Assembly (NCBI GenBank): GCA_045536935.1
Contig: JAZSOO010000005.1
Location: forward strand, 2,804-66,803
DNA length: 64,000 nt
From: Eubacteriales bacterium
GTDB taxonomy: Bacteria > Bacillota > Clostridia > Oscillospirales > CAG-382
Direction of reading: 5' to 3'
Position 1 is the stretch's first letter; every line of letters begins with the position of its first letter. Both the position numbers and the translations under genes were made by a program. Shown piece by piece: positions 2,285-63,770 of the stretch. The notes beneath the pieces are model-generated. The model searched no databases, had not been told where the DNA came from, and saw nothing but the letters and a program-made list of their open reading frames with translations.

Positions 2285-2313
2285 TTGACTTTTAATACAA
2301 ACGATGATATAAT
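2285..2313 (+). promoter_or_regulatory. sigma-70-type promoter for tRNA-Thr
   Basis: TTGACT (2285-2290), a 17-nt spacer, then TATAAT (2308-2313), about 30 nt upstream of the tRNA 5' end. Confidence 0.6.
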
Positions 2314-2343
2314 CGGCTTTGCGCCTGCTGATGTGGGTGCTGT

Positions 2344-2418
2344 GCTGGTGTGGCGCAGGGGTAGCGCAATTGATTCGTAATCAATAGGCCGAGGGTTCAA
2401 ATCCCTCCACCAGCTCCA
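2344..2418 (+). tRNA. tRNA-Thr (anticodon CGT), CCA encoded
   Basis: Hand-folded cloverleaf. Acceptor GCTGGTG/CACCAGC, D arm GCGC-AGGGGTA-GCGC, anticodon arm ATTGA-TTCGTAA-TCAAT, T arm GAGGG-TTCAAAT-CCCTC, discriminator T, then CCA. Confidence 0.9.
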
Positions 2419-2419
2419 G

Positions 2420-2464
2420 AAAAGAACCTACATTTGTTTATAAACAAATGTAGGTTCTTTTCAA
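2420..2464 (+). terminator. intrinsic terminator after tRNA-Thr
   Basis: Perfect ~20-bp palindrome AAAGAACCTACATTTGTTTA/TAAACAAATGTAGGTTCTTT followed by a T-rich run. Confidence 0.75.
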
Positions 2465-2631
2465 CTAAGTGTTCCGCTTTGCGGAACGTGAAGTTTCCTT
2501 CGGAAGTGAAGCGCACTTCGTGCGTGAAGTGTCCCTTCGGGACGTTATTCGGAACGCTTAACTTCACTGCTCTATAGGAGCAACTTCACTATGCCGTAGG
2601 CATAACTTCACTTGGCGCAGCCAAACTTCAC
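2463..2631 (-). repeat. composite hairpin / 7-mer repeat element, copy R1 (inverted relative to the copies at 63205 and 63453)
   Basis: Layout is AACTAAGT, then GTGAAGT-type 7-mers at 2488, 2506 and 2524, then ACTTCAC at 2561, 2583, 2605 and 2625. Each 7-mer is separated from the next by a short perfect hairpin, for example GTTCCGC-TTT-GCGGAAC or TATGCC-GTA-GGCATA. Confidence 0.8.
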
Positions 2632-2657
2632 TATGTATTTCTTTTTGGAGTCTTTAT

Positions 2658-3764
2658 ATGTCAGCCATTCGTTTATTGAAAAAGCACACCGTATTTTTTA
2701 TTGCGTTTGCGGTTGCGGTAATTACCTGCTTTTTTGTTCCGCCTGATGCGGAATATCTTGATTATTTTGATTGGAACACGCTTTCCTGTTTATTTATCAC
2801 CTTGGCGGTCGTTTGCGCATTACGTAATATTAAATTCTTTACGATTCTCGCAAGAAAGCTTGTTCTGATAACCGGTAATCTTCGAAGCTTGTTTTTGATG
2901 TTGATAATCGTTACGTTTATCGGTTCTATGCTTATTGCGAACGATATGGCACTTATAACCTTCCTGCCTCTTGGATATTTTGCTCTTTCGGCATCCAAGA
3001 AGGAAAATTATGCGGCATATCTCTTTATTCTGCAGAATATCTCTGCGAATTTGGGCGGTATGCTTACACCTTTCGGCAATCCCCAGAATTTATATCTTTA
3101 TTCCTATTTCAACATTCCGACGGGCGAATTTTGCGCTATCATGCTTCCCCCGTTTTTACTTGCAATTTCCCTTTTGGCTGTTTGCTGTCTTTTCGTCAAA
3201 TCCGAACGTCTTACTATCAACGAAGAATTTCCCGAAAAGCTACATAAGAAAAAAACGGTTCTTTATACCGTTTTGTTCCTTATTTCGATTCTTATTGTTT
3301 TCAGAGTTATTCCCTTTTTGGTGGGTTTAATAGCTATACCGCTAGTACTCTTTTTTGTAGATAAAGAAGCTTTGCGTGCCGTTGATTATCCCCTTTTGGG
3401 TACGTTTTTCTTCTTTTTCATATTTGCAGGCAACCTTGCAAGAATAGATGCGGTAAATTCCTTCTTCTCGATGCTTTTACAAAAGGACACGCTTACCGTT
3501 TCCCTATTTTCTTGCCAAGCGATAAGCAACGTACCTTCGGCGATATTGCTTTCTCGCTTTACAAACGATTATCACGCACTTCTTTTGGGTGTCAACATCG
3601 GCGGAACGGGTACACTTGTTGCTTCTCTTGCAAGCTTGATAACCTTCAGCGAATTTAAAATTCTTTATCCCGAAAGAACCAAGAAATACCTCTTGATGTT
3701 CACACTTATCAATTTTGCGTTCTTGATCATTATGGCTTTGGCGGCAAAATTATTTTTTATATAA
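2658..3764 (+). CDS. polytopic anion permease, ArsB/NhaD (citrate-transporter-like) superfamily
   Basis: 368 aa and very hydrophobic with many TM segments. It shows the duplicated-half architecture and GNPQN-type motif (TPFGNPQNLYL) seen in this superfamily. Family assignment is by eye only. Confidence 0.55.
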   Translation: MSAIRLLKKHTVFFIAFAVAVITCFFVPPDAEYLDYFDWNTLSCLFITLAVVCALRNIKFFTILARKLVLITGNLRSLFLMLIIVTFIGSMLIANDMALITFLPLGYFALSASKKENYAAYLFILQNISANLGGMLTPFGNPQNLYLYSYFNIPTGEFCAIMLPPFLLAISLLAVCCLFVKSERLTINEEFPEKLHKKKTVLYTVLFLISILIVFRVIPFLVGLIAIPLVLFFVDKEALRAVDYPLLGTFFFFFIFAGNLARIDAVNSFFSMLLQKDTLTVSLFSCQAISNVPSAILLSRFTNDYHALLLGVNIGGTGTLVASLASLITFSEFKILYPERTKKYLLMFTLINFAFLIIMALAAKLFFI

Positions 3765-34310: not shown

Positions 34311-34352
34311 GAAAATATAAAAGGGCGCACTTACTTAACAGCAAATGCGCCC
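34311..34352 (-). terminator. expression-platform terminator of the ZTP riboswitch
   Basis: On the minus strand, GGGCGCA-N16-TGCGCCC followed by TTTTATATTTT. The 5' arm overlaps the conserved CUGGGCG 3' end of the aptamer. Confidence 0.7.
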
Positions 34353-34467
34353 AGACGGTCGGCTTTTATACTCGGAAATATATCCTTTCCGAGGCTTTAC
34401 ATTCCGTAAAGCGAGTTCTTTGTTTCCTTGTGGTGCTCCACAAATTCCCGTCAGTCGCAAAGAACTT
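34348..34467 (-). ncRNA. ZTP (pfl-motif) riboswitch aptamer
   Basis: On the minus strand, a P1 helix AGTTCTTTG/CAAAGAACT encloses GACTGACGG...GTGGAGCACCAC. Downstream lies GCCGACCGTCTGGGCG, and CCGTC can form a pseudoknot with GACGG. These are the conserved cores of the pfl/ZTP motif, in the typical position ahead of purine and folate genes. Confidence 0.8.
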
Positions 34468-34480
34468 TATTGACTTTTTA

Positions 34481-63204: not shown

Positions 63205-63372
63205 ATGAAGTATCGGCTAACGCCGATGTGAAGTTATGCCCACGGCATAGTAAAGTATTGCGCTATCACGCAAAATGAAGTTAAGTGCGCCCTAATTTCC
63301 GCAGAAAGTTCACTGTCCGCAGGACAACTTAACTTGCGAAGCAAACTTCATGCGCCGAAAGACGCACTTAGT
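63205..63372 (+). repeat. composite hairpin / 7-mer repeat element, copy R2a
   Basis: GTGAAGT-type 7-mers at 63205, 63228, 63250 and 63275. ACTTCAC-type 7-mers at 63307, 63327, 63345 and 63366. Short hairpins sit between them. Confidence 0.8.
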
Positions 63373-63406: not shown

Positions 63407-63452
63407 TTGGCTTACACTACAAAAATAGAAACCGCTAAAAGGCTTGATTTTA

Positions 63453-63619
63453 GTGAAGTATCAGCTGTGCCGATGTGAAGTTATGGCTTGCGCCATAGTG
63501 AAGTTTTGTGCTTCGCACAAAGTGAAGTTAAGTGCGCCCTGATTTCCGCAGAAACTTCACTGTCCACAGGACAACTTAACTTGCGAAGCAAACTTCACAC
63601 GCCGAAAGACGCACTTAGT
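63453..63619 (+). repeat. composite hairpin / 7-mer repeat element, copy R2b
   Basis: GTGAAGT at 63453, 63475, 63498 and 63522. ACTTCAC, ACTTAAC, ACTTCAC and ACTTAGT at 63554, 63574, 63592 and 63613. The right half is nearly identical to R2a. Confidence 0.85.
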
Positions 63620-63652: not shown

Positions 63653-63751
63653 TGGCAGGGGCACTAGGACTTGCCCGACTGCGGTCGGAGCGGTGCGCGA
63701 TCTGACAGTCCCCCGGACTGTCATTCAACATGCGCCCTTCAAGTCCTAGCC
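63653..63751 (-). other. tRNA-Trp 3'-end duplicate heading a ~100-nt structured fragment (not a complete tRNA)
   Basis: The first 21 nt (TGGCAGGGGCACTAGGACTTG) are identical to 63810-63830, the 3' end of tRNA-Trp. The rest folds into a 10-bp closing stem (63664-63673 with 63740-63749) and two inner hairpins. There is no 5' acceptor strand and no anticodon arm. Confidence 0.6.
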
Positions 63752-63770
63752 AAAAACACCCAAACTTCAA

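Follow-up and report, generated by a model that had tools for sequence, protein, structure and literature searches.

A tRNA-Thr gene in this Eubacteriales genome is followed, past its terminator, by three words of the form GTGAAGT or GTGAAG and then by four copies of the complement ACTTCAC, all set out among small hairpins. What kind of element is this, and what might it do between the tRNA and the transporter gene downstream? The first-pass annotation of the window (the whole 64,000-nt stretch of DNA analysed here) had read it as a third, inverted copy of two arrays at 63.2-63.6 kb, and its module coordinates for 2463-2631 are exact to the base. When the window was re-read, every spacer that had been called a hairpin was a small hairpin, the inverted relation to the other two copies held, and the hairpin TATGCC-NNN-GGCATA was indeed common to the copies at the same ordinal position. 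The placing directly behind tRNA-Thr and its terminator was also borne out, with the tRNA at 2344-2418 and the palindrome at 2419-2462. Two features go beyond that description: a complementarity between two segments, M and M′, and a number of copies in the genome far greater than three. The features of the locus (2285-3764), followed by the other two arrays of the window, are these:

2285..2313, + strand: promoter of tRNA-Thr (TTGACT, 17 nt, TATAAT), from a promoter scan
2344..2418, + strand: tRNA-Thr(CGT), with an encoded CCA at its end
2419..2462, no strand assigned: H0, a perfect 22+22-nt palindrome, GAAAAGAACCTACATTTGTTTA / TAAACAAATGTAGGTTCTTTTC
2463..2470, + strand: L0, the outermost variant word, AACTAAGT
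2466..2476, + strand: M, the 5′ strand of the long-range helix, TAAGTGTTCCG
2471..2543, + strand: first arm (hairpins 1-4, words G1-G3), with an RF01706 match
2471-2487, + strand: hairpin 1
2488-2494, + strand: G1, GTGAAGT
2495-2505, + strand: hairpin 2
2506-2511, + strand: G2, GTGAAG
2512-2524, + strand: hairpin 3
2524-2530, + strand: G3, GTGAAGT
2531-2543, + strand: hairpin 4
2544..2560, + strand: centre, 17 nt, GTTATT followed by M′
2550-2560, + strand: M′, CGGAACGCTTA, pairs with M
2561..2631, + strand: second arm (A1-A4, hairpins 5-7), with an RF01706 match
2561-2567, + strand: A1, ACTTCAC
2568-2582, + strand: hairpin 5
2583-2589, + strand: A2, ACTTCAC
2590-2604, + strand: hairpin 6, TATGCC GTA GGCATA
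2605-2611, + strand: A3, ACTTCAC
2612-2624, + strand: hairpin 7
2625-2631, + strand: A4, ACTTCAC, with no hairpin after it
2658..3764, + strand: CitMHS-family transporter gene (PF03600)
63450..63612, − strand: paralogous array of the same word type, behind a 21-nt 3′ fragment of tRNA-Trp and its own terminator
63205..63372, − strand: paralogous array of the same word type, in tandem behind the 63450-63612 array

H0 carries an A-run and a T-run and starts straight after the CCA of tRNA-Thr. It is a bidirectional, terminator-like hairpin, and is similar to the H0 of the copies behind tRNA-Gln and tRNA-Arg. In the other arrays of the family, L0 takes the form CAAC, then T or G, then the last letters of the word. 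M′ repeats the 3′ arm of hairpin 1, whose 5′ arm is overlapped by M, so that the M:M′ helix and hairpin 1 are mutually exclusive. Downstream, the CitMHS gene has a ribosome-binding site, GGAG, at 2647-2650 and starts 27 nt past the last word of the array. A promoter scan of 2200-2800 on both strands returned no consensus promoter except that of tRNA-Thr, and transcription must therefore cross H0 and the array to reach the transporter gene. The gene is also without a promoter of its own in the closest relative, and appears dependent on read-through from tRNA-Thr. A small-RNA gene running towards the tRNA terminator from TTTCAA-17-TATAAA (about 2690-2660, − strand) was considered and rejected, as it fails the promoter scan and the flanks of the paralogues are unrelated.

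The 7-mer occurs 20 times in the window, compared with 6.1 ± 2.7 times in shuffled sequence; none of 100 shuffles reached 20, and the excess is confined to the three arrays. The array region also folds better than its shuffles, with z = −9.3 and −9.7, one value for each strand. Elsewhere in the window, a ZMP/ZTP riboswitch lies at 34342-34468 on the − strand (RF01750; 48.1 bits, which exceeds the gathering score).

Gut-1 identity and copies of the array

Both arms of the tRNA-Thr array matched the Rfam family Gut-1 (RF01706) at permissive thresholds, the first over 2462-2535 (+ strand; 42.2 bits, E = 5e-7) and the second over 2578-2645 (− strand; 36.3 bits). Each alignment spans the full model length, all 77 positions, with a score below the gathering score of 50. 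The other two arrays of the window behaved in the same way, with both arms matched on opposite strands. A canonical Gut-1 copy lies elsewhere in the genome (C24:61302-61378; 76.2 bits). Matches were found in 28 of 40 relatives, with up to 43 half-hits per genome and many scores of 50-91 bits; many of these matches lie at contig ends and have identical scores. The layout of the tRNA-Thr array is that of Gut-1, free-sequence hairpins split by a heptamer, here GUGAAGU.

Gut-1 is listed as a small RNA with covariation by Rfam and by Weinberg et al. 2010 (PMC2864571), who state the motif only as known from human gut sequences. The motif and our arrays have in common three small hairpins parted by a GUGAAAU-like heptamer, and gut metagenomes and uncultured Clostridia as their source. 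In contrast, the model describes one arm only (77 positions), and the tRNA-Thr copy uses GUGAAGU. In the Stockholm seed of Weinberg et al. the flanks already run from a tRNA or stop codon through a terminator and the array to an inverted second arm, which carries the complementary word (for example GUGAUAU, then AUAUCAC). Thus catalogued Gut-1 is one arm of a two-armed element, and the element described here is not new in kind: it belongs to Rfam Gut-1, catalogued at half its real size. The literature searched on Gut-1, PF05635 and TIGR02436 describes no two-arm form, M:M′ helix, mobility or protein partner for it, and no link to PF05635. On the function of the three families, this literature gave nothing useful besides papers on DGRs and on the Coxiella IVS.

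The focal genome (G000; 1.49 Mb, 96% complete, 39 tRNAs) contains about 19 arrays with at least seven different words. Arrays with the word GTGAAGT, here called type A, number eight full copies and one half copy. Five arrays carry the 9-mer TATATCATC/GATGATATA, one, which is truncated, carries GTGAAAT, and others carry ACATCGTT, GTTATGA (two in tandem) and TCGATAT. An array is present at 13 tRNA loci, there being about 26 ends of tRNA transcription units. Arrays at tRNA loci share one constant orientation, and the remaining arrays follow protein-coding genes. Flanks are unrelated between copies, homology stopping at ACTTCAC-TA, and the paralogous copies in this genome are mostly old and diverged, not near-identical. 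The earlier view of a dispersed family, not a local duplication only, is therefore upheld by about eight full type-A copies together with the other words genome-wide, and the number and order of modules prove conserved when about 70 arrays, taken from relatives and from further gut Clostridia, are compared. At least 30 Clostridia MAGs of gut or rumen origin contain type-A arrays; they are assigned to Oscillospiraceae, Acutalibacteraceae, Christensenellaceae and Ca. Scatosoma. A DNA search of five relatives with the tandem-pair region recovered mostly a different small repeat.

A separate element of about 100 nt, CCCGACTGCGGTCGG...GACAGTCCCCCGGACTGTC, occupies 63654-63760 of the window and is also present at C34:2100-2250. 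It is placed between a tRNA with its terminator and an array, and ends in a 21-nt copy of the 3′ end of the adjacent tRNA. Relatives contain repeats of it too, and in one of them (G049:C65:6730-7100) three copies stand in tandem, 145 nt apart. It has the look of a footprint left by an integrative element that targets tRNAs, or of a separate small repeat family.

Pairing and strand bias

Read on the strand in the sense of the tRNA, the arrays share one order: H0, L0, hairpin 1, three words with hairpins, the centre, and four complementary words with hairpins. The 3′ arm of hairpin 1 (in one clade, that of H0) always recurs in the centre, so that M (2466-2476) has two possible partners, the local one and M′ (2550-2560). 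An M:M′ complementarity of 10-15 nt, in many unrelated sequences, was present in about 37 arrays of other word types; with the wrong orientation as a control, the best complement was at most 9 nt.

Pairing was quantified in 19 type-A arrays. M:M′ and five hairpins were paired in 96.8% of cells, compared with 76% in shuffles (0 of 500 reached the observed value), and double changes were seen in 21 of 31 pairs. The hairpins thus covary across type-A arrays, as a conserved structured module, which the first-pass annotation had proposed, should do. The M:M′ helix of type A is 11 bp long and 97.5% paired. When the partners were slid by 1-3 columns, pairing dropped to 29-48%.

Wobble pairs in the type-A arrays were strongly one-sided, with 17 G.U cells and 1 A.C cell on the tRNA-sense strand. 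In the M:M′ subset that was oriented without counting G.U, there were seven G.U and no internal A.C. A count restricted to hairpins, mostly from GTGAAAT-type arrays, gave 7 G.T and 6 A.C among 1124 pairs, with no strand bias. Terminators, used as a control, are nearly wobble-free too, and the scarcity of G.U is therefore no argument for DNA. The loops are TNC triloops on the strand with the G-rich word, and GNA or GNNA on the strand with the complementary word; this symmetry of loop and word indicates that the two arms are one module in two orientations. Unit length varies from 18 to 26 bp across arrays. The complementary arms, the M:M′ helix, the covarying stems and the one-sided tolerance of G.U point to a single-stranded form, in which the tRNA-sense strand would carry the structure that selection sees.

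Predicted folds of the tRNA-Thr array have energies of −66.6 kcal/mol with word-word pairing, −46.4 with M:M′ and hairpins 2-7, and −39.8 with local hairpins only. RNAalifold also favours pairing of first-arm words with second-arm words. A ladder of four-way junctions built on such pairing was rejected, although it is the minimum-free-energy fold, because deviant words are uncompensated. Among the individual words parsed, words are invariant within a type, with too little variation for mirrored changes to show.

Insertion sites and the proposed PF05635 partner

Mobility, for which the first-pass annotation had proposed a comparison of presence and absence in relatives, can be judged at the orthologous tRNA-Thr locus. 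The closest relative that has the transporter gene, G018 (82% amino-acid identity), shows the matching order of NiaR-like gene, tRNA-Thr(CGT) and transporter. The array is missing there, and the tRNA is followed by a different, plain terminator and a spacer of about 45 nt. Past that terminator the stretch CACGAAATAAGG resembles the start of a GTGAAAT-type array and may, tentatively, be a scar. The array was also absent from two more relatives with tRNA-Thr beside the transporter. In two other species, a unit of 268 nt (H0, array and a second terminator) is 98.5% identical and begins exactly past the CCA, of tRNA-Val(GAC) in one and of tRNA-Arg(CCT) in the other, with unrelated flanks. The empty orthologous site and the 268-nt unit behind two tRNAs therefore indicate that the element is mobile or replaceable; to judge from the repeated sequence, the terminator H0 sometimes belongs to the unit. 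Within the focal genome, the arrays behind tRNA-Thr and tRNA-Val(TAC) are 92% identical over 177 nt, from CTAAGT to ACTTCACTAT, and have different H0 hairpins. The differences lie mostly in the loops and the centre, which argues that stems and words are selected even in solo copies.

The 3′ end of a rumA-type methyltransferase gene forms a second hot spot: 9 of 30 relatives carry an array there, with four words represented. These arrays vary, some having a gene of the family PF05635 (see below), some lacking it and some being truncated; those that have lost the gene are truncated. H0 at this site consists of the last codons of the methyltransferase gene and an inverted copy that tracks their synonymous changes, and relatives without an array lack the H0 hairpin as well. 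The site (G000 C29:11740-12015; loci L367-L396) belongs to a 23S rRNA methyltransferase gene of rumA type. The inverted copy extends its product by a few residues, and other relatives have this gene in fusion with additional C-terminal domains instead.

The junctions compared, at the G018 locus and the 268-nt unit, showed no target-site duplication. As regards the features of a MITE, the words give terminal symmetry, and one pair is 98.5% identical between species, most paralogues being diverged. Neither a reverse transcriptase (PF00078) nor a Y1 transposase/RAYT (PF01797) was found in the focal genome, which is 96% complete, and mobilisation of the REP/RAYT, DGR or IS200 type was rejected on this ground. 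The genome holds four tyrosine recombinases. An integron-like row of cassettes was rejected because the clustered arrays on one contig of relative G011 each lie behind their own tRNA, and a phage origin because there was no bipartite type-A array among 119 viral-contig pattern hits. A prophage-like contig of relative G027 (C18, locus L081; 13.9 kb, with terminase and portal genes) carries two or more arrays that could be parsed, as well as three separate half-hits to Gut-1.

The arrays are closely associated with genes of the Avd-like family PF05635. Among 41 genomes, whose relatedness to one another inflates the counts, PF05635 was found in 22 of the 29 that are Gut-1-positive and, above cut-off, in none of the 12 that are Gut-1-negative (G024 has one below it). 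In the order's other families, Gut-1 was present in all five PF05635-positive genomes, and weak matches were seen in 2 of 11 PF05635-negative genomes. All five PF05635 genes of the focal genome lie directly behind an array, with the words GTGAAGT (twice), ACATCGTT, GTTATGA and TCGATAT. Among the relatives, about 45 of 51 such genes have an array before them, and the word changes with the protein clade, across at least 12 words. The correlation of word and clade could owe much to linkage, as co-inheritance of adjacent DNA alone would yield it. Two complete type-A cassettes are present in the focal genome:

C5:4649-5270: complete type-A cassette, PF05635 gene behind array
C8:49737-50360: complete type-A cassette, PF05635 gene behind array

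The gene downstream of the tRNA-Thr array is the CitMHS transporter gene and not a PF05635/TIGR02436 gene, and the array is therefore a solo copy. Strict type-A arrays were found in 6 of 41 genomes, and a gene of the type-A clade in four of these six. For the solo TATATCATC, GTGAAAT and ATGAAGY arrays, no cognate PF05635 gene was found in the focal genome (96% complete). Its five TATATCATC/GATGATATA arrays (C24:60440-60660, C1:3398-3540, C32:55340-55560, C34:1918-2060 and C9:71400-71560) all sit behind tRNA terminators, and a PF05635 gene with this word is present in relative G036 (locus L121).

The protein, a putative Avd-like ring protein, is a four-helix bundle of about 120 aa which matches TIGR02436 with 108 bits, and also PDB 2RLD, an uncharacterised entry with five chains. 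Its invariant polar residues (C5 numbering) are Q35, R38, S39, S42, N46, E49, Y52, D58, K62, K68, E69 and E72. W76 also belongs to the invariant constellation, in the protein of C5:4920-5267 and 50 other PF05635 proteins. The polar constellation suggests a site for ligand binding or catalysis more than a simple scaffold. Residues that vary with the array type fall in the N-terminal helix and around positions 81-100.

At most tRNA-linked loci with the gene, the last word directly adjoins the −35 box, TTGAAA, of a TGnTATAAT promoter placed about 23 nt before the ATG. This promoter lies between array and gene, so that the array is not in that mRNA. At rumA-type loci the array extends to the ribosome-binding site, and must therefore be co-transcribed. 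One PF05635 clade has contiguous heptads without hairpins, four or five of CTTCACT and then four or five of AGTGAAG. Loci of this hairpin-less form are L108, L110, L111, L113 and L119 (relatives G016, G036, G022 and G021), and the centre of the variant contains a copy of the 3′ arm of the terminator.

Possible function of the array

The words are identical within an array yet differ between cassette lineages, which suggests a trans-acting reader of shifting specificity. The PF05635 protein is the only variable factor tied to the arrays, and this is why we read the array as its docking platform. In the explanation that we consider best, 2419-2631 is a solo copy of a gut Clostridia cassette whose array docks a PF05635 protein; taken whole, we put it forward tentatively, as slightly more open to doubt than to belief. 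The cassette would begin with the stem-loop H0, continue with two inverted arms, each of about four 7-nt words with free-sequence hairpin spacers, and in complete copies go on to a promoter and the PF05635/TIGR02436 gene. The repeated words would make the specific contacts, and the hairpins would hold them spaced and exposed. The M:M′ helix would compete with hairpin 1 and close the first arm. At the tRNA-Thr array, the type-A proteins encoded on contigs C5 and C8 may bind and serve as a barrier to, or regulator of, read-through into the CitMHS gene. The tRNA promoter is the sole one found and the gene starts only 27 nt past the array, so that a bound or folded array would stand in the path of the only transcription that reaches it.

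The active form is proposed to be RNA, produced by read-through or co-transcription. We lean slightly towards RNA, with single-stranded or extruded DNA nearly as likely. It counts against RNA that arrays behind tRNAs follow a strong terminator and that one cassette has terminators on both sides. Promoter placement, the terminators on the flanks, modules symmetric in orientation, the clade without hairpins and the precedent of DGRs point to DNA, which would also most simply explain why the arms are inverted equivalents.

The array could instead be a double-stranded DNA operator or iteron-like site, at which PF05635 reads the 7-bp word in both orientations and either controls the adjacent promoter or blocks RNA polymerase reading through from the tRNA. 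The contact of the last word with the −35 box in most gene-linked loci fits such a site, as do the inverted equivalence of the arms and the insulation of some arrays by terminators on either side. The hairpin-less clade, with its direct and then inverted contiguous heptads, is much like heptad operators. Ribbon-helix-helix repressors such as omega of the inc18 plasmids act on heptad-repeat operators, and TRAP is a ring protein with multi-site RNA targets. Like the arrays, these targets hold many copies of a short word, direct and inverted or spaced round a ring-shaped oligomer; unlike them, they are bound by a protein of another fold and have no counterpart of the hairpin spacers and the long-range helix. 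An operator leaves exactly these spacers unexplained, together with the compensatory changes, the M:M′ helix and the 17:1 excess of G.U, and the unit length of 18-26 bp poorly matches helical phasing. We consider an operator unlikely.

It is also improbable, in our judgement, that the array is a selfish repeat borne on single-stranded DNA and comparable to REPINs with their RAYT. Non-autonomous arrays would then insert 3′ of stem-loops, PF05635 would maintain or move its own array type, and hairpins and words would persist since only intact copies spread. Several observations agree with this: the 98.5% identical cassette behind the CCA of tRNA-Val and tRNA-Arg in two species, the identical scores of many matches at contig ends, the site that is filled in the focal genome and empty in its closest relative, and the swapping of array types at the same tRNA and rumA sites. 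Orientation is constant relative to the upstream gene, and the array beside each gene is of that gene's own type, just as REPs flank their RAYT gene. The focal genome, however, has neither a reverse transcriptase nor a Y1 transposase, no target-site duplication was seen, and the paralogues are mostly old and diverged; we also know of no nuclease or recombinase activity of PF05635. REP/REPIN systems resemble the arrays as dispersed, structured, symmetric repeats at the 3′ ends of genes, with several types per genome and a trans-factor gene flanked by its own repeat type. They differ in their Y1/RAYT gene, which is absent here, and the free hairpin sequence and conserved linker word of the arrays are the opposite of what is found in REPs.

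Two further systems involve PF05635 itself. DGR target DNA forms a hairpin or cruciform whose stem is free in sequence and whose loop reads GRNA on the sense strand (Guo et al. 2011, PMC3240598). The likeness to the arrays lies in the free stem sequence, the required stem structure and the biased loop, in the position of hairpins at the 3′ end of a gene, and in the partner family, to which Avd belongs. The loop is 5′-GRNA in DGR targets versus GNA or GNNA in Gut-1-type arrays, and the DGR target is a single hairpin of 7-10 bp, whereas the arrays consist of seven or eight mini-hairpins with words between them. The focal genome is moreover without reverse transcriptase, and the array without template and variable repeats. 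The 23S rRNA IVS with its S23p (PF05635) ORF, as in Coxiella, is likewise a small, selfish-looking insertion on a stable-RNA gene (PMC4990558). The IVS lies inside the rRNA and is excised, whereas the cassettes sit behind tRNA or rumA-type genes, and a Gut-1-type array comes before the ORF and does not flank it.

A free-standing structured RNA, the classical Gut-1 small RNA with no dedicated protein, is in our view very unlikely. Its listing as a covarying small RNA by Rfam and Weinberg et al. speaks for it. So do the minimum-free-energy fold with nested word pairing, by which it might form the ladder of four-way junctions between first-arm and second-arm words, and the exact complementarity of the second arm to the first-arm word in every word type. 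Against this, homology between copies stops at the last word, so that no promoter belongs to the repeated unit. The word deviations GTTAAGT and ACCTCAC are uncompensated in the supposed partner, the M:M′ helix that evolution has kept is incompatible with the word-word fold, and the tight link to PF05635 is left unexplained. A chance cluster or simple local duplication, for which nothing speaks beyond the AT-rich intergenic setting, is refuted by the excess of the 7-mer, the fold z-scores, the matches in relatives, the conserved modules and the covariation.

What this analysis adds to Gut-1 is the three-way complementarity of M:M′ with its statistics, the strand test and the loop and word symmetry of the arms. 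It also adds the exact cassette boundaries with near-identity between species, the empty orthologous site for the tRNA-Thr array, the rumA hot spot, the last word abutting the −35 box, and the hairpin-less clade. The tRNA-Thr copy itself adds little more than a clean case of a solo array whose orthologous site is informatively empty. Arrays of this family account for many contig breaks and for "empty" regions behind tRNA genes in the MAGs of gut Clostridia.

The docking of a PF05635 protein on the array leads to a wider proposal, which we regard as possible but doubtful: that non-DGR PF05635 proteins are word-specific binders of hairpin arrays, and that protein and array together make up an unrecognised class of small cassettes, located 3′ of stem-loops behind tRNA and rumA genes and diversifying by their 7-nt word. 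If true, this would be a partnership like that of REPIN and RAYT or of the DGR target, without transposase or reverse transcriptase, and would hint that Avd reads a hairpin or cruciform in DGR target recognition. To our knowledge Gut-1 has been an orphan motif since 2010, and no role is known for the PF05635 "four helix bundle / 23S rRNA IVS protein" family outside DGRs. If binding is word-specific, both orphans would be explained, and the cassettes would provide natural, mutually orthogonal protein-nucleic-acid pairs for at least a dozen words.
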